Shown: positions 753 through 23,972 of the stretch, piece after piece
Layout of the letters: each line of letters opens with the position of its first letter
Position numbering within the stretch: the first letter of the stretch is position 1
Source of the DNA: Methanocaldococcus jannaschii DSM 2661
GTDB lineage: Archaea; AGJL01; Methanococci; Methanococcales; Methanocaldococcaceae
Direction of reading: 5' to 3'
Assembly: GCF_000091665.1 (NCBI RefSeq)
Contig: NC_000909.1
Location: 90,001-122,000, forward strand
DNA: 32,000 bases
The notes under the pieces: model-generated
Seen by the model: only the letters and a program-made list of their open reading frames with translations
Told to the model about the DNA's origin: nothing
The model's database searches: none
Made by a program: the position numbers and the translations under genes

Positions 753-799
753 GATTTCCCTTGGAACTTTTTATAAACGTTTAGATGGAAACTGTTAGG

Positions 800-1041
800 T
801 TTTCATTACCGAAGCTACGCTTTGGTTAAATAAATCCTAACGGATTTGTAGCTCTTCGCTCCGCTCCGATTAAATGAAAACTTTTTGAGTTTTTGTAGCC
901 AGAATTGAAACTTTCTGTTTCATCAAAATTTTTATGAGCATCCCTCGTAGAAAGGGATTCCAACCTATTGGACATTAATTGCCCCTGTAAGGGGCAACTT
1001 AATGGACATGTGATATCCCAATAGGAGGCATCCTCCTATGG
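800..1041. repeat. Modular GC-hairpin chain element, copy A (left boundary approximate)
   Basis: Chain of short perfect hairpins: aaatcc/ggattt 832-847, atccct/agggat ~939-959, ttggacattaatt-gcccctgtaaggggc-aacttaatggac 968-1007, and terminal cccaataggagg-cat-cctcctatgg 1017-1041. Modules recur at 7186-7425, 11642-11833 and 20260-20333. Confidence 0.75.
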
Positions 1042-7053: not shown

Positions 7054-7160
7054 AAATTCACCATTAAAAACTGTTAAGTTAAGATTTAAAAAATAAATAC
7101 TATTTAAAAATAGTTAATCCATAAATCTAAAAAAATAAATATAACAACCTAAAATAAAAT

Positions 7161-7185
7161 AATAAAATGGTGCCGAGGGAGGGAT
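7161..7185 (-). pseudogene. Displaced copy of the tRNA-Met 3' end (T-loop to CCA plus trailer)
   Basis: tggtgccgagggagggat at 7168-7185 is identical to 7426-7443, the 3' terminus of the intact tRNA-Met. The aataaaa trailer is also shared. Confidence 0.8.
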
Positions 7186-7425
7186 ACAAACGAAACTTTT
7201 AGAAAAAGTTAAACAAAATCTTTCAGATTTTGTAGCCCGAAGCTAACGCTTCGGTTAAATGAAAACTAAAAGAGTTTTCATAGCTGGAAAGCGTAGCTTT
7301 CCATTTCATCAAAATAGGATGCATTGCCTCGCTACGCTCGGCAATGCCTCTTAAAAGAAAGTGGGGTTGCCTCTGGCAACCCTGCTCTGAGTATCCCAAT
7401 AGGGCGAAGCCCTATGGAATAAAAA
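7186..7425. repeat. Modular GC-hairpin chain element, copy B (about 7 hairpins)
   Basis: Hairpins ccgaagc/gcttcgg 7237-7254, gaaaact/agttttc 7261-7279, tggaaagc/gctttcca 7284-7302, gcattgcc/ggcaatgc ~7321-7347, gggttgcc/ggcaaccc 7363-7383, and terminal cccaatagggc-gaa-gccctatgg 7395-7417. Confidence 0.8.
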
Positions 7426-7537
7426 TGGTGCCGAGGGAGGGATTCGAACCCTCGACCTCCCGGTTTCCCAGGACCCAGGCGTAAAGCCTGGGATATCCGT
7501 ATGAGCCGGGCGCTATAACCAGCTAAGCCACCTCGGC
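7426..7537 (-). tRNA. tRNA-Met (CAU, elongator) with a ~35-nt intron after position 37; CCA encoded
   Basis: Minus strand reads GCCGAGG...GCGCCCGGCTCATA[CGGATATCCCAGGCTTTACGCCTGGGTCCTGGGAA]ACCGGGAGGTCGAGGGTTCGAATCCCTCCCTCGGCACCA. Acceptor, anticodon and T stems all pair. The intron carries a 7-bp hairpin. Confidence 0.93.
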
Positions 7538-7628: not shown

Positions 7629-7716
7629 GCGGGGGTCGCCAAGCCAGGTCAAAGGCGCCAGATTGAGGGTCTGGTCCCGTAGGGGTTCGCGGGTTCAAAT
7701 CCCGTCCCCCGCACCA
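7629..7716 (+). tRNA. tRNA-Leu (GAG), long variable arm, CCA encoded
   Basis: GCGGGGGTCGCCAAGCCAGGTCAAAGGCGCCAGATTGAGGGTCTGGTCCCGTAGGGGTTCGCGGGTTCAAATCCCGTCCCCCGCACCA. The cloverleaf pairs correctly. The anticodon loop is TTGAGGG. Confidence 0.93.
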
Positions 7717-7724
7717 AATATTTG

Positions 7725-7802
7725 ATAGCGGGTTAGAAGAGGCATTGCTTCCATTAGGAAGCAATGTATCCTGGGTATAGCAATAGGGCGAAGCCCTATG
7801 CT
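7725..7802. repeat. Modular GC-hairpin element, short copy E (2 hairpins)
   Basis: gcattgcttcc-atta-ggaagcaatgt at 7742-7767 and caatagggcgaagccctatg at 7781-7800. The second hairpin has the same apex as copy B. Confidence 0.7.
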
Positions 7803-7830
7803 TTAAACCCCATCCCCCGCACCAAATATT
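7803..7830 (+). pseudogene. Displaced copy of the tRNA-Leu 3' end (T-loop to CCA plus trailer)
   Basis: aaaccccatcccccgcaccaaatattt versus genuine aaatcccgtcccccgcaccaaatattt (7698-7724), ~25/27 identical. Confidence 0.8.
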
Positions 7831-7957
7831 TTGAGCTTTTTTTAATTTGGACAATATTAGTAACTGCAAAATCTTCTTTTAGAATAATAATAACCCAATA
7901 TAACAAGATTGTTTAAATTGTTTTTAATTAATGTAAATATTTGAATGTTGTGGGATT

Positions 7958-11641: not shown

Positions 11642-11833
11642 TTGGACATTAATTGGGACTGAAAGTCCCAACTTAATGGACGTGTGGTATCCACACCATA
11701 AAGGGGCTACGCCCCTCTTGGGATACTCCCCTAATATTGCTAATTTACACCTCCGAGCATAAGCGAGGAGGTGTTAGGTTTTGATGAACCTTTTACTAAA
11801 AGGTTCATACCAATAGGAGGTTTCCTCCTATGG
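11642..11833. repeat. Modular GC-hairpin chain element, copy C (6 hairpins)
   Basis: ttggacattaatt-gggactgaaagtccc-aacttaatggac 11642-11681, gtgtgg-tat-ccacac 11682-11696, aggggc-tac-gcccct 11702-11717, acacctcc...ggaggtgt 11748-11775, atgaacctttt-act-aaaaggttcat 11783-11809, ccaataggagg-ttt-cctcctatgg 11810-11833. Confidence 0.8.
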
Positions 11834-16479: not shown

Positions 16480-16530
16480 CTAAGATTTCTTCATCTCTTC
16501 CTTTATTTTAAGATAGGTTATCGGTATCGC
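16480..16530 (-). pseudogene. Displaced, diverged copy of the last 16 codons plus stop of the PQ-loop gene
   Basis: Minus strand reads AIPITYLKIKEEMKKS*, versus the genuine C-terminus WIPITYLKIRDEMRKS* (16611-16661). 40/51 nt identical with no indels. Differences are silent or conservative (K/R, E/D). Confidence 0.7.
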
Positions 16531-16610
16531 AAGCATATAGAGGAACCTCTATTACTATACTCCGAGTGGGCTTTACTATGTTCAGCCCCACTTTCTATAT
16601 TTAGCTTTCA

Positions 16611-16892
16611 TTAAGATTTTCTCATCTCATCTCTTATTTTCAAATAAGTTATCGGTATCCAAAACATTAAAGACAAAATGTTAAATACTATTATTGGGTA
16701 ATCATTTCTTAATATTCCATATATTAACCAGAGTGTCAGTCCAGTTGTGAATGTTATAACAAAAGCTAATGAGATGTTGCTCATATCTTTCTCCTTCAAA
16801 GACTTTATTAATTGGGGGAGAGATGCAAAGGTTGTTAAAGTTCCAGCAATATAGCCGATAACAGTTATATCAAAGTCCATATTAATCACCAC
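16611..16892 (-). CDS. PQ-loop / SemiSWEET-like small membrane protein (3 predicted TM helices)
   Basis: 93 aa with three hydrophobic segments and an LPQLIKSLKEKD PQ motif after TM1. Confidence 0.7.
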   Translation of the reverse strand: MVINMDFDITVIGYIAGTLTTFASLPQLIKSLKEKDMSNISLAFVITFTTGLTLWLIYGILRNDYPIIVFNILSLMFWIPITYLKIRDEMRKS

Positions 16893-18148: not shown

Positions 18149-18251
18149 AAATCCAAACTATTAAATTTATTTCTATTTTTTTAGAAACTAAAAGAGTTAA
18201 AAATTTAGTTCCTATTTTTCAAATTTATTGAATTAGACTAAATAAAAAATT

Positions 18252-18352
18252 ATTTTTATTCCATATTGGTCTGATTTTAATGAAATGTTTATTCTTGGAG
18301 AGCCACACATTATTTGTGATGAGTTTCCATTCCGAATCGGTCTGATTTTAAT
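18252..18352 (-). CRISPR. Mini CRISPR array 2: one canonical repeat, one spacer, one degenerate terminal repeat
   Basis: Repeat gtttccattccgaatcggtctgattttaat at 18323-18352. Degenerate copy atttttattccatattggtctgattttaat at 18252-18281. Spacer of 41 nt. The leader homolog follows directly. Confidence 0.8.
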
Positions 18353-18544
18353 TCTTTTAATATTTAAAATTTTCTCCCTTTAATAAAACAGAGCATTCTT
18401 ATCTCCTTAAATTCAAAAATTTAACTTATTAGTTAGAGAAATCTTATTTAGATAATTATTTAATTTTTATTTTTAAAAATCTGAATAATTCAATAAACTC
18501 AAATATTCTAAATAATCAAACCAGCAAACCCTTAGAAATTAAAT
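18353..18544 (-). promoter_or_regulatory. CRISPR leader, second copy
   Basis: 18361-18544 aligns with 2640-2824, including caaaccagcaaacccttagaaattaaat. Confidence 0.75.
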
Positions 18545-18690
18545 TTAAAACCTCTAAATAAATAATTCCTAAATACTCTTATTTTCAAAATCCAAACATA
18601 TTCAACAAGACAATCAATAAACCAAACAACAAAATCAGAAATTCCAAACCTACAATTTTTCTTTTTTATAAAAATATTTAAATAATGTAT

Positions 18691-20157
18691 TTAAGCTGTT
18701 TGATTCTTCTCCTTCCATTCTTTTAATATCTTATCCCAGTTATTTCTTAAGAAGTCACCAACTTGAGATGAATCTCTTGTTCCAACAACACATGTCCAGC
18801 CGGTTTTGTCTTCAATATCTCCTCTTGTAGAAGCAGCTAAAGCTGGCAATATTATTATCCTGTGGCTAACTTTATCAGCGATTCCTGTCTCTTCAATTAA
18901 TTTTTTAGCATTTTCTCCATTATACTGCCCTCCTGCAACTGAAACATCAACAGCCTTTCCTCCAGTGTCCATAACCAATAGCCAGCAGGTAACGTTATCT
19001 TTCTCAAAGTCTCCTGTAACTGTGTAGAATGTTAATGAGAAGTTTGTTGTTAATATAACTGGGCTGTTTTCGTCTGGATTGCCAATTGGGTATAAGCCTG
19101 GCTCAACTGCCTGTGGCTTTCTTGGGTCTGTATAGATACACTGTCTCAATGTTAGGACTGGCATTAATTCCCATATATCCATTCCATGCATAATTAAAGC
19201 ATCTGCATATCTGTTCATCAATGTATTGGCTATTGTAGCCTCAAACATCTTAGCAACAACCTCTTTATCCTCAAAAAATCCAGAGATTGGGCATTCATTT
19301 TTTAAAGCATAATAATAAGCGTTAATTGGTAAATTTAATATTGGAAATCCTAAGTATTTATCTTCCTTCTCAATAGCACTCCTCCTAATCATTACATTCA
19401 AATCTAATGTTTCAGCGATATTTTCTGGGTATGTGTGAGGTTCTAAAACTAAATCTTCAATACCATTAGCTAAGCACTTTGCAGCCATGTTTTTTAAATC
19501 TTTAACATTATTTGATGATAAAACCAAAACAACGTCCTTTTTAACTTCTTTAATAACCTTTATGAAATCATTTAACGTTTCTTTTGTTGCGGCATAGACC
19601 ATTGGCTTTGATTTAACAACTTTTAAAGCTTCCTTTATAACCTCCGGATTTAATGAGGCAATGCAAATAGGCATCTTTGTTTCTTTTTCAACAATTTCTA
19701 TAGCTTTTTTAAACTTCTCAACATCTCCAGATGCATTTCTTATAACAATAAAGTCTAATTTTAACTTTTCTCCAGTTCTTTCAAATACAAAGTTCTCTAT
19801 TTCCTTAGCTCTATTTTTAATTTCTTCTTCACTTAACTCGTCGCTAATATCAACACCAATTGGTGTAGGGTTAAAGAATGATAACTGATATCTATACATT
19901 ACCTCGTCTCCACCCATAACCGCCTTTTTTTCTTCGTTCCCAAACCAAACTTCTTTTACTGGTGGAGAGATAAGCTCTATAATCTTCTTTTTATTTTTCT
20001 CAAATTTTGGGGTGTTTAATATAGGACATTGGTCAATTGTTGCCTCTTTCTCTAACAGTTTTGTAGCAAATGCCATGCATGACGGATAACCGCATTTTTT
20101 ACAGTTTGTTTTTGGCAGTAATTTGTAAATATCCATTGCACTAATCTTTTTTGGCAT
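18691..20157 (-). CDS. cdhE: Acetyl-CoA decarbonylase/synthase gamma subunit (corrinoid/Fe-S protein large subunit)
   Basis: 488 aa. N-terminal 4Fe-4S motif LPKTNCKKCGYPSCMAFATKLLEKEATIDQCP, then a TIM-barrel and corrinoid-binding C-terminal domain. Lies directly downstream of cdhD. Confidence 0.93.
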   Translation of the reverse strand: MPKKISAMDIYKLLPKTNCKKCGYPSCMAFATKLLEKEATIDQCPILNTPKFEKNKKKIIELISPPVKEVWFGNEEKKAVMGGDEVMYRYQLSFFNPTPIGVDISDELSEEEIKNRAKEIENFVFERTGEKLKLDFIVIRNASGDVEKFKKAIEIVEKETKMPICIASLNPEVIKEALKVVKSKPMVYAATKETLNDFIKVIKEVKKDVVLVLSSNNVKDLKNMAAKCLANGIEDLVLEPHTYPENIAETLDLNVMIRRSAIEKEDKYLGFPILNLPINAYYYALKNECPISGFFEDKEVVAKMFEATIANTLMNRYADALIMHGMDIWELMPVLTLRQCIYTDPRKPQAVEPGLYPIGNPDENSPVILTTNFSLTFYTVTGDFEKDNVTCWLLVMDTGGKAVDVSVAGGQYNGENAKKLIEETGIADKVSHRIIILPALAASTRGDIEDKTGWTCVVGTRDSSQVGDFLRNNWDKILKEWKEKNQTA

Positions 20158-20211
20158 TCTATCACCTTTAGATTAATAATTACAATTATATTACAATTTT
20201 ATGCCTTTGCC

Positions 20212-20244
20212 ACAATCTAATCGTAGTTGTTGGTGTTTATCTTA
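20212..20244 (-). pseudogene. Displaced, diverged copy of the cdhD 3' end
   Basis: 20212-20244 versus 20338-20370 is 27/33 identical. The fragment reads KINTNNYD*, the gene reads KLNTNNYEWIVSP*. Differences are mostly third-position. Confidence 0.65.
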
Positions 20245-20259
20245 CGTATTTAACTAAGC

Positions 20260-20333
20260 TTGGACATTAATTGGGGCTGATAGCCCCAACTTAATGGACG
20301 GGAGGTATCCCAATAGGAGGTCTCCTCCTATGG
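20260..20333. repeat. Modular GC-hairpin element, copy D (2 hairpins)
   Basis: ttggacattaatt-ggggctgatagcccc-aacttaatggac followed by tatcccaataggagg-tct-cctcctatgg. The last 6 nt overlap the final Pro codon and TAG stop of cdhD. Confidence 0.8.
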
Positions 20334-21545
20334 GCTGACAATCCACTCATAGTTGTTTGTGTTTAGTTTAACCTCTCCTGGCTTGGTTGTTAGAGTTTTT
20401 CCAATCTCTTTCAGTGTTTTAACTGATATTGGATTGAGCATCATGAATAAATCTACTCCACACATCATCATCGTAATTCCAGTAGTTATTTCCCATAATG
20501 GTAATCTATACTCTCTTGGCCCCCATTCAGGATTGTTCATCCATGCCTCTCTTGCTCCAATAGCGTTTGTTGTTCCAGATGACATTGGCATATTAACCAA
20601 CTCATCTCCCTTCAATCCATTTAATCTTAATCTAACCATTGCGTTGATTGAGAACTCAATCCCATAACCTAAAGCACATGTTGTTGGATCCATAACTATT
20701 CTATTTGGGTCCAAACCAGCTTCAACAAGTTTTCTATTTAAATCTCTCGCCATATTTGGGTCCATAATACTCCATGCTAATACGTTGTGGTCATATTTCA
20801 TAGCTGCATCAACTATCTTTTTATAATCCAACTCCAAGTTTGCTGAAGCTAATAAGCATCTATCTCCTTCTGCTACTTCAGCACATGCTTCCAAAACTAA
20901 AGGGTCTTTTTGAGGATTTCCACTACCTCCAATAACAAATGGAACATCAACTGCCTGTAATAAATCTTCCATTAATTTTGCAGCTTCTTTTGGACTTTTA
21001 TCTTTAATTTTTGGGTCTGTGGAGATGTGGTGAATTGTTATCATATCTGCCCCAAATTCTTTAACACACTTCTTTGCCCATTCGCAAGGGTCTTCCATAA
21101 CATCCTGGAAAAACTGCCTAATTGGTTTTGGTAATCCTGGCATTGGTATATCGAATATATCGAAAGTAACAACTGGTGGATTTGGCTGTGGTTCTTCAAA
21201 TCTATATAAAGCTCTCTGTCCCCCAATTTTCACAACTTTTCCTCTTCCTCCTTCTGATTTTGGTTTTCCAAATTGGACTTCTCTTATATATCCAGGATAT
21301 TTTTCAACTGGTGGTTCCCAATCTAACTCTGGGACATCTTTAATTTCTATAATTCCTTCTTCAGCCAATTTTTCTTTTATTGATGGTGTTTGAGGAATAA
21401 CTATTGGAGGGGCTGATGGGATATTTATAATTAATTCATCTGCGGTGATTTTTATATCCTCAATCTCAATTCTACCAACTTTTTCAATGATTTTTATCAA
21501 AGTATTTAAATCCATAACCTCACCCAATCTGTCATTATAAATCAT
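20328..21545 (-). CDS. cdhD: Acetyl-CoA decarbonylase/synthase delta subunit (corrinoid/Fe-S protein small subunit)
   Basis: 405 aa with a pterin-binding-like TIM barrel region (ADMITIHHISTDP...). Paired with cdhE. Confidence 0.92.
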   Translation of the reverse strand: MIYNDRLGEVMDLNTLIKIIEKVGRIEIEDIKITADELIINIPSAPPIVIPQTPSIKEKLAEEGIIEIKDVPELDWEPPVEKYPGYIREVQFGKPKSEGGRGKVVKIGGQRALYRFEEPQPNPPVVTFDIFDIPMPGLPKPIRQFFQDVMEDPCEWAKKCVKEFGADMITIHHISTDPKIKDKSPKEAAKLMEDLLQAVDVPFVIGGSGNPQKDPLVLEACAEVAEGDRCLLASANLELDYKKIVDAAMKYDHNVLAWSIMDPNMARDLNRKLVEAGLDPNRIVMDPTTCALGYGIEFSINAMVRLRLNGLKGDELVNMPMSSGTTNAIGAREAWMNNPEWGPREYRLPLWEITTGITMMMCGVDLFMMLNPISVKTLKEIGKTLTTKPGEVKLNTNNYEWIVSP

Positions 21546-21765
21546 TATAGATTAAGATTAAGTTATTACCAAACTTCATATATAAACGTTATTATTTCAA
21601 TTTTTTAAAGGAAAATTTCTAAAAAATAAAAAATATTTTATTTTATCTTAAATTGACAAACAGTATTCGTTATTAGATATTTTAATAGCTATATTACATT
21701 TTGTATGAAAAACTTTTATATATTTTGGATGTCTATCAATATTACTGCCTACTACCCATTAATGT

Positions 21766-21854
21766 GGCGCGGGGTACCGGGCTTGGTAGCCCGGGGCGGA
21801 CTTCAGATCCGTCGAGGGCGAGAGCCCTCGGGGTTCGATTCCCCCCCTGCGCCG
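21766..21854 (+). tRNA. selC: tRNA-Sec (UCA), 9-bp acceptor / 4-bp T stem, CCA not encoded
   Basis: GGCGCGGGG...CGGACTTCAGATCCG...long GC extra arm GAGGGCGAGAGCCCTC...GGGGTTCGATTCCCC...CCCTGCGCC-G. The acceptor pairs over 9 bp with one G-U. Anticodon TCA. TATA-like ttttatatatt lies ~45 nt upstream. Confidence 0.9.
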
Positions 21855-21873
21855 TCATTATTTTTGTGAGATT

Positions 21874-22785
21874 ATGGAGAAAGTGTATTCAAAATTTGGA
21901 AGAATTGAAGATTTAAAAGAAATTATTTCTGGATTGGTTAATTTTACAGGAATTATTAGAATAGACAATGCCCTTCTCTTTTACATTGACTCAAAACTTA
22001 TCTCATCAAAGTTTAATGGTAGAGAAAAAAGTTTAGAAGAGATATTTTCACAAATTCCAGACGAGTTTTTAATAGAGATTTATCAAGGAAATGAAAAGGA
22101 AGTAAAATCTGCTCTTATAAATTTTAAACCAGAGGAATCTATTGTTGAAATTTCTAAGCTAAGCCTGGTTTTTGAGAATGAGGTTATTTTGAATTCTTAC
22201 AACGATGTATATAAATATTTAACTTACATAAATAAAGTTATTTTTATGCCAAAAAGATTTAAAAATGAAAAAGGGATTGTTGTTTATAAAAACAAGAGAG
22301 AGGTTTTTGCAGTATATTTTGGTAGAAAAACTTTATTTGGGAAGAAAGCAATTAGCAAACTAAAAACAACATTTGCCGTTAGTGAAATAATTGCAAAAAT
22401 TGAGAAAATATCCAATGAAGAATTAAATTCTTTAAAAAATCAATATCCTGAAGGCGTTTTATTGTTTGGAGATTCAATTAACGATGTTGTTAAGAAAATA
22501 ATATCTTCAAAAAAACCTATAATCTTAGAAAATGTTTCATTGATTGATGCTCTATCTTACGGAACATGTTTAATTAAGATTGAGGGTAGTGAAATTGGAT
22601 ATATTGTAGCTAAAGATGGAAAACCAGTATATGCATTTTTAAATGATTATGATGGAGAAAAAAGTTACAGATTGTTAAAGAGCATGTGTATTGTTGAAGA
22701 TGTTAAATACTCCATCTATAAGCTATCAAAAGAAGAGTATGACATGTTTAAAACATTTCAGGAAAACAAAATCCCATTATCTTAA
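21874..22785 (+). CDS. Hypothetical protein with three tandem ~55-aa modules
   Basis: 303 aa ORF starting 19 nt after tRNA-Sec. By eye, modules start [27 protein letters not shown] and [14 protein letters not shown]. No catalytic motif recognised. Confidence 0.6.
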
Positions 22786-23249
22786 TCCTTATCAATCATT
22801 TTTATAGCCATTTCATAGGCTTTCTTTAAATCTCCTGTCTCTAAGATACATTTTTCAGCAATATCTTTTGGAATGCCTTTTTTAACAAAAACTTCCACTG
22901 CCTCTTTAAAAAACTGGCTATTTCTTATAATTTCCTCAGCAAGCTGTTTTTTTAGCTCCATGTATTCATCTGGACTTATGTTGTTTTTAGCAAGCTCATA
23001 ATCCCTGTAAGGGCAGGGTTTTGTTATTTTACAACACCAAACTAAACTACCAAAGCATGTATTTTCTCCTAAACCAAGTTTTGTCCTCTTTCCAAATTCT
23101 TCCTTTATTCTTATAAACTCCTCTGGTGACATTTTCAATACAGCTAACGCTTTATGAATAGGACAGTATTTTATTGGAGGACAGCAAAAAGCTAAACCTC
23201 TCAAATCTCCTCCCCTACATATATGAGATGGAGCATTCTCCCAGCCCAT
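22782..23249 (-). CDS. Cys-rich protein with an internal duplication, unknown function
   Basis: 155 aa. Two copies of C-x(9-10)-CC-x5-CP followed by (M/I)SP(E/D)E(F/Y): [26 protein letters not shown] and [22 protein letters not shown]. Starts 4 nt after the arfB stop. Confidence 0.6.
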
Positions 23250-23253
23250 AATT

Positions 23254-23931
23254 TCACCTTATCATTTCTTTTATTTTTTCAACAACTTTTTCTATTGCGT
23301 TATTCAAAATTTTCTCTCCAAGTTTTTTATCCAACTTAACTCCAAATCTTTTAACAACTTTTGCCTCTTTATCTATTGCTTTGTTGTTTTCTCTTGCCTC
23401 TTTTAGCCCAACCATTCCTACTTCAGGATATTTTTCAAAGTTGTTGTGCTCTTTCAAAGTTTCTTCATCAGCTTTAGCTATTCCAATAATGTAACCAACA
23501 GAAACCTCCTCAGTTGATGCATGTGTAAAGGTTATATTTATCATCTCAACCTTTATATCAAACTCATACTCTAAATCTTTTAAAAAACTTTCAACTAAGA
23601 TGTTTCCCCCATGGCAATTAACTATCAAAAACTTCTCTACACCAATTTTTTTACCTTCATTTATCAAAAATCTCATATAGCTATAAACTTCCTCTGGTTT
23701 GTTGTGAATGCCATGCTTAACATACTCATATTCAGTTGATGGAATAACAACTCCTAAAAACTTAGCCCCAGTTAAAATAGATGCCTTTAAAGCTATATAA
23801 GATGCTATCTTTATATCAGTGTCTATTGGCAAAACAGCTCCATGATTTTCTAAGAATGACCCAAGGGCAATAATCCCCACTTTATGGACTTTTTCATTTA
23901 ATACATTTCCTGATGATAATCTAAGTTGCAT
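23254..23931 (-). CDS. arfB: Creatininase-family amidohydrolase, ArfB-type (FAPy deformylase of archaeal riboflavin/F420 biosynthesis)
   Basis: 225 aa. The [16 protein letters not shown] motif is typical of the creatininase fold. The ArfB assignment is recalled from the MJ0116 literature. Confidence 0.75.
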
Positions 23932-23972
23932 AATATCCCAGAAATGTAAAATTTTGATATAAAAAAAGAAAA

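Follow-up and report, generated by a model that had tools for sequence, protein, structure and literature searches.

Suyama, Lathe and Bork, writing in FEBS Lett in 2005, reportedly described 141 palindromic repeats (MJRE1-3) in Methanocaldococcus jannaschii, three of which are said to reach into coding regions without destroying them. In this study, we analyzed a 32-kb stretch of M. jannaschii DSM 2661 DNA (the window), in which a 93-nt palindromic repeat, here called element D, lies at the 3' end of cdhD, the gene for the delta subunit of acetyl-CoA decarbonylase/synthase (ACDS), between two copies of a 33-nt stretch of that gene. The state of cdhD is likely to reflect a lineage-specific duplicative insertion of this repeat, with both copies descending from the resident target. 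Element D is almost certainly, we presume, a repeat of the MJRE type, to which it was assigned by description. The likeness extends to several properties: it occurs in the same organism, and its family is short, GC-rich, palindromic, multi-copy and mostly extragenic, at times reaching into genes. The family is represented in the window by six terminal-hairpin copies, with more in related genomes, and element D has the palindromic, non-coding build of about 100 bp expected of an MJRE, with two stable hairpins and covarying stems. cdhD may even be one of the three coding-region cases of Suyama et al. Long flanking duplications of MJRE-type repeats are nowhere mentioned in the searchable literature, which includes some papers citing Suyama et al., such as PMC2229807, but does not cover the original description.

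Two other groups of mobile DNA provide parallels to such duplications. Upon insertion, IS1549 and IS1634 generate long and variable direct repeats (8-514 bp), for which there is no accepted mechanism (PMC2266710). The hairpin elements examined here share these long direct repeats of variable length; yet, they measure only 34-230 nt, lack an open reading frame (ORF) and have one hairpin end, whereas the two insertion sequences (IS) measure 1.5-2 kb, carry a DDE transposase gene and have two inverted ends. Integrative elements at gene 3' ends, on the other hand, include those with tRNA-targeting integrases as well as phage 21 and e14 in icd. As at cdhD, their direct repeats contain the target gene's 3' part and they leave a pseudo-3' end displaced, but they differ in their fixed attP, integrase gene, kilobase size and fixed orientation, and in that the gene is normally restored.

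A hairpin repeat at the 3' end of cdhD

The cdhD product matches MJ0113 exactly (AAB98094.1 / Q57577). It contains the CdhD domain (Pfam PF03599) and its gene adjoins cdhE, the two marks by which CdhD is recognized. The locus comprises the following features.

20328..21545, minus strand: cdhD (MJ0113), acetyl-CoA decarbonylase/synthase delta subunit, 405 aa, from ORF and translation; C-terminus KLNTNNYEWIVSP-stop
20338..20370, minus strand: gene-proximal duplicate, still encoding KLNTNNYEWIV; 27/33 identity to 20212-20244
20328..20337, minus strand: new cdhD end, C AGC CCA TAG (third base of Val, Ser, Pro, stop), found in no orthologue
20245..20337, plus strand: element D, 93-nt non-coding insert, not present at 14 related loci, with related copies elsewhere
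20310..20333, plus strand: terminal hairpin of element D, CCAATAGGAGG-TCT-CCTCCTATGG, with one bulged A, from fold and conservation
20265..20296, plus strand: hairpin 1 of element D, CATTAATTGGGGCT-GAT-AGCCCCAACTTAATG, from DNA fold prediction
20212..20244, minus strand: displaced duplicate, reading KINTNNYD-stop-IV; 27/33 identity to 20338-20370
20217..20219, minus strand: TAG in the displaced duplicate, TGG (Trp) in cdhD and in every orthologue
20199..20211, minus strand: rest of the ancestral cdhD 3' end, G GCA AAG GCA TAA (..AKA-stop), equal to GCA AAR GCA TAA of the orthologues
18691..20157, minus strand: cdhE (gamma subunit), with FeS and CdhD domains, the next gene downstream of cdhD

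The two duplicates, 126 nt apart, agree at 27 of 33 positions, far beyond what base composition provides: in 2,000 dinucleotide-preserving shuffles of 20100-20450 none reached 27, the best 33-mer direct repeat having no more than 24 matches. Across the whole window, other local direct repeats with at least 27/33 identity are limited to CRISPR repeats, one T-rich low-complexity pair, and the flanks of two further elements, at tRNA-Leu and SemiSWEET. The original prediction, drawn from the letters of the window alone, had reported this repeat, and all of its statements about the sequence hold. Just beyond the repeat six more bases (GTTAAA) match if an 8-nt insertion is permitted, and the original duplicate may thus have been about 40 nt long, although the alignment leaves this uncertain. 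The differences between the cdhD copies mix transitions and transversions, and C-to-U deamination was rejected as their source.

The last codons of cdhD are partly those of the element. cdhD closes, on the minus strand, with ...AAA CTA AAC ACA AAC AAC TAT GAG TGG ATT GTC AGC CCA TAG; the first 4 nt of the new end are junction bases of element D (GCTG on the plus strand), and its last 6 nt lie in the 5' arm of the terminal hairpin in the sense of the mRNA. This hairpin reads CCATAGGAGG-AGA-CCTCCTAT(T)GG on the minus strand, with CCA TAG G as its 5' arm, and the proposal that it supplies the Pro codon and the stop of cdhD is borne out. The displaced fragment, read through, is AAG ATA AAC ACC AAC AAC TAC GAT TAG ATT GTG GCA AAG GCA TAA, or K I N T N N Y D stop I V A K A stop, which is a full ancestral 3' end: positions 20199-20211 directly join the displaced copy on one side and the native spacer to cdhE on the other. 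The fragment had been taken for an alternative 3' end with a stop of its own. Judged by the alignment, however, its TAG is a Trp codon (TGG) mutated after displacement and not a former stop, and homology runs on to the true old stop, TAA at 20199-20201, 15 nt further.

To read the ancestral state, we gathered related loci by a scan of one genome per species, which gave 14 (L001-L014), and added the cdhD region (21 kb) of M. fervens (L021) and of FS406-22 (L023). The element is missing from cdhD at 14 related loci, namely the 12 readable ones among L001-L014, M. fervens and FS406-22; L010, with an aberrant end, and L005, with unexplained extra DNA, were left out of this count of clean empty sites. 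In close relatives cdhD ends ...NNY[E/D]WI[V/T]AKA-TAA (or AKS) and cdhE starts 26-27 nt further on, and in more distant relatives it ends in WITA, WIIA or WIRA. Neither of the two ends between which the original prediction had hesitated, NNYD-stop and NNYEWIVSP-stop, is therefore ancestral. The element-free state for which it had suggested looking in sister genomes is there, and since orthologues without the element neither end in YEWIVSP nor carry a second fragment, and the similarity far exceeds that of the shuffles, its central observation stands. That nothing was inserted, the arrangement being ancestral and lost in relatives, or the repeat a product of chance, is scarcely credible. Long direct repeats could permit precise excision, but ancestry would need many independent and exact losses, at all 14 related loci and in several species including FS406-22, while chance is excluded by the shuffles.

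FS406-22 has the most similar flanking DNA among the relatives compared. In blastn, window positions 18664-20244 and 20340-23940 both align to it, with an overlap of 31 nt; two copies in the window thus face one in FS406-22, the signature of a target duplication. The insertion point falls between ATT GT and G GCA, at a distance of 11 nt from the former cdhD stop. Distance does not tell which copy is native, as each has 4/30 mismatches against FS406-22, and the comparison with M. fervens is likewise uninformative.

One metagenome-assembled genome shows a different departure at this site. In L005 (4200-4440) cdhD ends WITCP-stop instead of WITAKA-stop, about 230 nt of AT-rich DNA precede cdhE, and the divergence begins at the same position as element D. 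The extra DNA contains no recognizable element, and we rejected L005 as a second insertion at the same site of cdhD.

How much did cdhD change? The original prediction had the insertion exchange the C-terminus of CdhD. The end is indeed altered, but read against the orthologues the exchange comprises only three residues, AKA giving way to SP, and not the whole tail. CdhD matches solved structures of the small subunit of the corrinoid iron-sulfur protein (CFeSP) and of CdhD (E = 1e-42 to 1e-54), and this similarity stops at residue ~383. The swapped residues are the end of a 22-residue extension beyond the conserved fold, whose tail after W-I differs between orthologues. Because they close a variable extension that is specific to Methanococcales and lies outside the conserved fold, the swap was probably close to neutral. 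Downstream, the ribosome-binding site and start codon of cdhE are unaltered, although the spacer between the two genes measures 170 nt in M. jannaschii versus 26-27 nt in close relatives. Within it, 20177-20198 holds a local tandem, AATTGTAAT-ATAATTGTAAT, not present in relatives.

These same features bear on whether the two ends could be functional alternatives, a programmed switch or recoding device for the CdhD C-terminus. We regard this as very improbable. Displaced copies at SemiSWEET and in metagenomes (see below) do keep an open frame and stop at the same place, but the displaced cdhD copy has an in-frame TAG for Trp and no upstream reading frame, element D has in-frame stops behind the stop of cdhD itself, and the tail concerned is variable and outside the conserved fold. 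The evidence that the element brought in the displaced copy as an alternative end is weak; the 33-nt repeat is better taken as a target duplication.

Sister elements in the window and in metagenomes

Element D is one of six elements in the window that share a terminal hairpin of the form GGTATCCCAATAG-stem-loop-stem-CTATGG with one bulged A. The other five are:

7724..7801, plus strand: sister element after tRNA-Leu(GAG), with 30-nt duplicates 7694-7723 / 7802-7831, from T-loop to trailer
7192..7417, plus strand: composite sister element beside an intron-containing tRNA, with ~32-nt duplicates 7160-7191 / 7418-7449
16537..16610, minus strand: sister element after the SemiSWEET/PQ-loop gene MJ0110, with 57-nt duplicates 16611-16667 / 16480-16536
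780..1041 (left boundary approximate), plus strand: composite sister element after aIF2-beta, the terminal hairpin ending 3 nt past the stop codon
11642..11833, plus strand: composite sister element after MJ0106 (PAC2), the terminal hairpin ending 3 nt past the stop codon

Long direct repeats of a gene's 3' end flank four of the six (two tRNAs, SemiSWEET, and cdhD), in line with the earlier claim that both tRNAs and the PQ-loop gene have the same geometry as cdhD. At the aIF2-beta and MJ0106 elements inspection found no flanking repeats, and the protein ends are unaltered. All elements studied are located no more than about 11 nt from the 3' end of a gene or tRNA.

The SemiSWEET site offers a second comparison with relatives. 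Its duplicates read MFWIPITYLKIRDEMRKS-stop (16611-16667) and MLAIPITYLKIKEEMKKS-stop (16480-16536), and the site is empty in four metagenomic loci (L034-L037), in M. vulcanius and in M. fervens, while L033 has a shorter, different element variant at the same junction. The junction sequence GCTTGCG is identical in M. jannaschii and L033 despite their differing elements, and suggests that the element body turns over behind a fixed junction. SemiSWEET proteins of close relatives (P0135-P0167; window 16611-16880) have very unlike C-terminal tails after a common ...YLKI[KR][DE]E, a pattern suggesting that this 3' end has been remodeled repeatedly.

One metagenome scan with a strict terminal-hairpin pattern gave nine loci, one of which (L030) starts inside the element at a contig end. 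In all eight with readable flanks, a 45-61-nt repeat of the 3' end of the gene upstream, including its stop, directly follows the hairpin, and several are arrays in which repeats and elements alternate (repeat-element-repeat-element-repeat). By contrast, ~150 kb of related element-free genomes contain no such local repeats, except CRISPR arrays and one unexplained pair in L011. The latter, on a Methanothermococcus contig (1410-1713), is a perfect 28-nt direct repeat, 276 nt apart and unrelated to CRISPR. In L027 (2530-2750), compared with L024 and L032, the repeat array of one gene is joined, via a common element, to the displaced 3' end of a different gene, that of L024; either the metagenome assembly is chimeric at the repeat, or element copies have really rearranged with each other.

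Several further observations concern these sites. The intron-containing tRNA (7429-7537, minus strand) adjoins the composite element 7192..7417. ARAGORN reports a 'tRNA-Stop (tta)' at 7426-7511 and Rfam a 109-nt tRNA at 7429-7537 (minus strand); it is probably an intron-containing tRNA, the suppressor-like anticodon being probably an artefact. In the spacer between PAC2 (MJ0106) and DUF473, related hairpin modules occur in M. jannaschii (11642-11833) and M. fervens (L159 15974-16113), combined differently, which argues that the MJ0106 element is old, and the same spacer of M. vulcanius holds what is apparently a decayed hairpin. Five of the six terminal hairpins in the window are on the plus strand, the SemiSWEET one excepted; by analogy with single-strand transposons, this skew could reflect a bias relative to the direction of replication. 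The window also contains two small CRISPR arrays (2294-2532 and 18247-18355; Rfam CRISPR-DR13 and DR39), each adjoining a 217-nt leader-like repeat (2628-2844 / 18349-18565, 82% identical), which together represent the scattered long-repeat/short-repeat organization of M. jannaschii. We saw no resemblance between the targets of the elements and the CRISPR repeats of the window.

Anatomy of the elements and of their junctions

Elements of the family measure 34-230 nt and encode nothing, and their duplications range from 25 to 61 nt. The duplicate lengths group near 30-37 nt and 50-61 nt, but eleven cases are too few for this to carry weight. Element D itself has a 16-nt left filler, followed by hairpin 1, the terminal hairpin and four junction bases, with the conserved terminal hairpin as its right end on the plus strand. 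Its DNA folds into the two stable hairpins (z = -5.6), and it contains no ORF, with further in-frame stops after the stop of cdhD. Relatives occur in the window at 968-1041 and 11642-11833, and others in further genomes; the hairpin 1 module in particular recurs at 968-1007, at 11642-11681 and in L025, L028 and L030. M. fervens and the L024-L033 lineages, like M. jannaschii, are rich in elements; FS406-22 and M. vulcanius are poor in them, with none in the 20-40 kb covered. No Rfam family matches any element, either at gathering thresholds or at E <= 1, and collections of plasmids and phages gave no match to element D and no related IS. A loose hairpin pattern has matches in IMG/VR (at least 120), but these are chance matches, none in an element-like context.

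Terminal hairpins were located with a purpose-written hairpin finder, MAFFT being unable to align stems of unequal length. Across copies the right end alone is conserved, and the left parts are variable strings of other hairpin modules. The inner stems of the terminal hairpin covary (GGAGG/CCTCC, GGGC/GCCC, GAGGG/CCCTC, GGGGC/GCCCC), and such a conserved, covarying hairpin argues that some protein recognizes it. Terminal inverted repeats are absent: the left ends vary from copy to copy and do not form reverse complements of the right end. The elements occur in both orientations: at cdhD and the second tRNA the hairpin lies next to the gene, and at tRNA-Leu, at SemiSWEET and in the metagenomic loci it is on the far side.

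The duplicate starts right behind CCTATGG, and across the family the inserts stop precisely at the foot of the one conserved hairpin. Its first 10 nt show 24% differences versus 10% in the remainder (Fisher P = 1.6e-4), often with a 1-nt insertion. GCT lies within three bases of the hairpin at 7 of about 17 junctions, and in three of these cases (cdhD, L026, L032) TGC stands at the boundary of the native target. More broadly, GCT or TGCT is often seen behind CCTATG(G), as in the window (20334-20337, 16528-16536), in L026 (7326-7329, 7463-7466), in L032 and in L033. A classical MITE (miniature inverted-repeat transposable element) of ~110 nt, with inverted ends TAACCAATTATCAAAG and a TA/TTA duplication, is nested in hairpin 1 in L025 and L030 (~30-145); in L025 it interrupts an element whose terminal hairpin lies at 275-298 on the minus strand.

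Origin of the duplicated gene ends

Under the reading we prefer, duplicative insertion, a 93-nt two-hairpin repeat would have inserted in cdhD once M. jannaschii had separated from FS406-22 and M. fervens, and one resident 33-nt stretch of the gene would have come to lie on both sides of the insert. The copy joined to the gene would still be translated, running on for 4 nt and then into the terminal hairpin, so that Ser-Pro-TAG replaced Ala-Lys-Ala-TAA. The other copy, together with the 11 nt that had closed the old gene, would have been pushed 126 nt downstream to become dead DNA, and its present state suggests decay, with Trp changed to TAG, Leu to Ile and Glu to Asp. We favor an insertion that is one-ended and defined by the hairpin; the process of duplication we infer. 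In one version, strand breaks staggered by 25-61 nt would have been filled in, a serious possibility though short of probable, for which IS1549 and IS1634 offer a precedent. In another, of the copy-choice kind, the element would be copied up to the foot of the hairpin, after which synthesis would restart upstream on the target via microhomology. We hold this version somewhat tentatively; it would make sense of an element with just one defined end and variable left parts, as well as of duplicates with a fuzzy edge and differing lengths.

Two considerations lead us to duplicative insertion. The first duplicate needs a process that copies the resident target, as recombination with a circle that has the repeat beforehand could do no more than hand it on. 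In addition, since both orientations occur, models of att-type integration, or of homology on one side and an illegitimate join on the other, need gene-disrupting precursors for cdhD and for the second tRNA.

The first of these models stands near the view of the original prediction: a small circle with its own cdhD 3' region would have recombined with the gene, one repeat being foreign and the pair representing attL/attR. Flanking repeats do cover tRNA 3' halves (from the T-loop) and gene 3' ends, and the tandem arrays look like accretion at att sites; yet one element family stands beside many unrelated repeats, which leaves no fixed attP, and elements of 34-230 nt that encode nothing have no larger relative in plasmids, phages or IMG/VR. 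Integration cannot create the first duplicate, and with both orientations in evidence the circles for cdhD and the second tRNA would have had to come from a precursor that disrupted the gene. The copies themselves point both ways. Differences between them are to excess synonymous or conservative, the SemiSWEET pair including AGA/AAG twice and TAA/TAG, and in L026 and L028 the gene-attached copy is similar to the last, native copy and the middle one has diverged, as att-type integration could produce. However, both cdhD copies are equally far from FS406-22 (4/30 each), the three polarizable changes in the displaced cdhD copy are non-synonymous decay, and the working SemiSWEET end shows no anomalous divergence against orthologues (84-88%, versus 86-89% for the gene body). 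We consider this model unlikely. Integrase att sites as such were rejected on three grounds: no constant core, the repeat being different at each site; both orientations; and no recombinase gene in a 93-nt element.

The second model, import, we regard as more doubtful still. DNA of a relative with a post-stop element would have entered by homologous exchange on the gene side and an illegitimate join at the hairpin, displacing the recipient's 3' end. The microhomology and fuzzy edge at the hairpin-side junction would suit such a join, post-stop elements without duplication exist as possible donors, and the synonymous excess between copies speaks for it too, as do unlike element variants at the same SemiSWEET junction in M. 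jannaschii and L033. But import predicts a hairpin that is always gene-distal, and at cdhD and the second tRNA it is proximal; it leaves unexplained why the duplications keep to a 25-61-nt range instead of scattering; and it should usually restore the gene end, yet cdhD is without its last three codons. Taken jointly, att-type integration and import hold a small but appreciable share of the probability.

Several observations weigh against duplicative insertion. Two of the six window elements, after aIF2-beta and after MJ0106, are without flanking duplication. A duplication length that varies from 25 to 61 nt is unlike most transposases, and the element has one defined end and no terminal inverted repeats. 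No transposase, integrase or other partner was found in the 32 kb, and no genome-wide search was made. There are also the differences between paired repeats, of which 26/46 are synonymous, with synonymous and conservative changes enriched; this excess departs from pure neutral decay of one copy (P = 8e-8) and from a model with silent drift in the working copy (P = 0.0014, weaker if transitions are favored). It hints at a divergence of some copies while they served as gene ends in separate lineages. Similarly, in the SemiSWEET pair most derived changes are in the working copy and not in the dead one, and the arrays of L026 and L028, with like outer repeats and a diverged middle one, are unexpected under simple serial insertion without gene conversion. 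Allelic replacement of the working gene through recombination within populations, together with gene conversion between like copies, would account for this misfitting divergence.

Comparison with other small mobile elements

Besides the groups described at the outset, three kinds of small or duplicating elements invite comparison. Repetitive extragenic palindromic (REP) sequences, the mosaics built from them (BIME) and the hairpin ends of IS200/IS605 share GC-rich imperfect hairpins with a bulge, modular mosaics and a position just past genes, but they insert without target duplication and need a Y1 (HUH) transposase. To our knowledge, no duplication of tens of bases accompanies REP or IS200/IS605, and an origin of this type is ruled out by duplications at four of six window sites and at eight of eight readable metagenomic loci. 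Classical MITEs are likewise small, non-coding and multi-copy. Their termini are inverted repeats and their duplications are short and fixed in length, as in the MITE nested in L025 and L030, unlike its host element, and we ruled them out because the hairpin elements have no inverted ends and variable duplications of 25-61 nt. Lastly, Cas1 integrases, which act on CRISPR spacers and in casposons, also join DNA in a staggered manner and duplicate a target of 14-37 bp. Casposons, moreover, prefer tRNA and gene 3' ends. Here, too, there are differences: in these systems the enzyme or the repeat sets a fixed duplication length, the ends of casposons are inverted, and spacers measure about 35-40 bp.

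Significance for gene ends in methanogens

The direct effect on CdhD is small, amounting to three tail residues and, between two ACDS cluster genes that point the same way, 143 additional bases that include stable hairpins. It is the mechanism, rather than the consequence for CdhD, that is of interest. The cdhD case is a new instance of a known repeat family, whose insertion signature may so far have gone undescribed. The long repeats make the insertion reversible in principle, and recombination between the 33-nt copies could excise element D and nearly restore the old cdhD end.

Overall, the pattern of duplicated gene 3' ends in hyperthermophilic methanogens fits neither classical MITEs, REP-type elements nor att sites. 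It is possible, though we would put it forward only with reserve, that hairpin repeats form a class of mobile DNA of their own, with one end only (the bulged, covarying hairpin), no inverted termini, copy-and-restart or staggered insertion, duplications of 25-61 bases and homing to 3' ends. They would then leave a trail of spare gene ends and, now and then, a rewritten C-terminus, and the spare ends may later pass between lineages. If a dedicated one-ended insertion is real, it would be a new route for small repeats to spread and a steady supply both of new C-termini and of dead gene-end fragments, which annotators could take for remnants of integrated viruses or plasmids.

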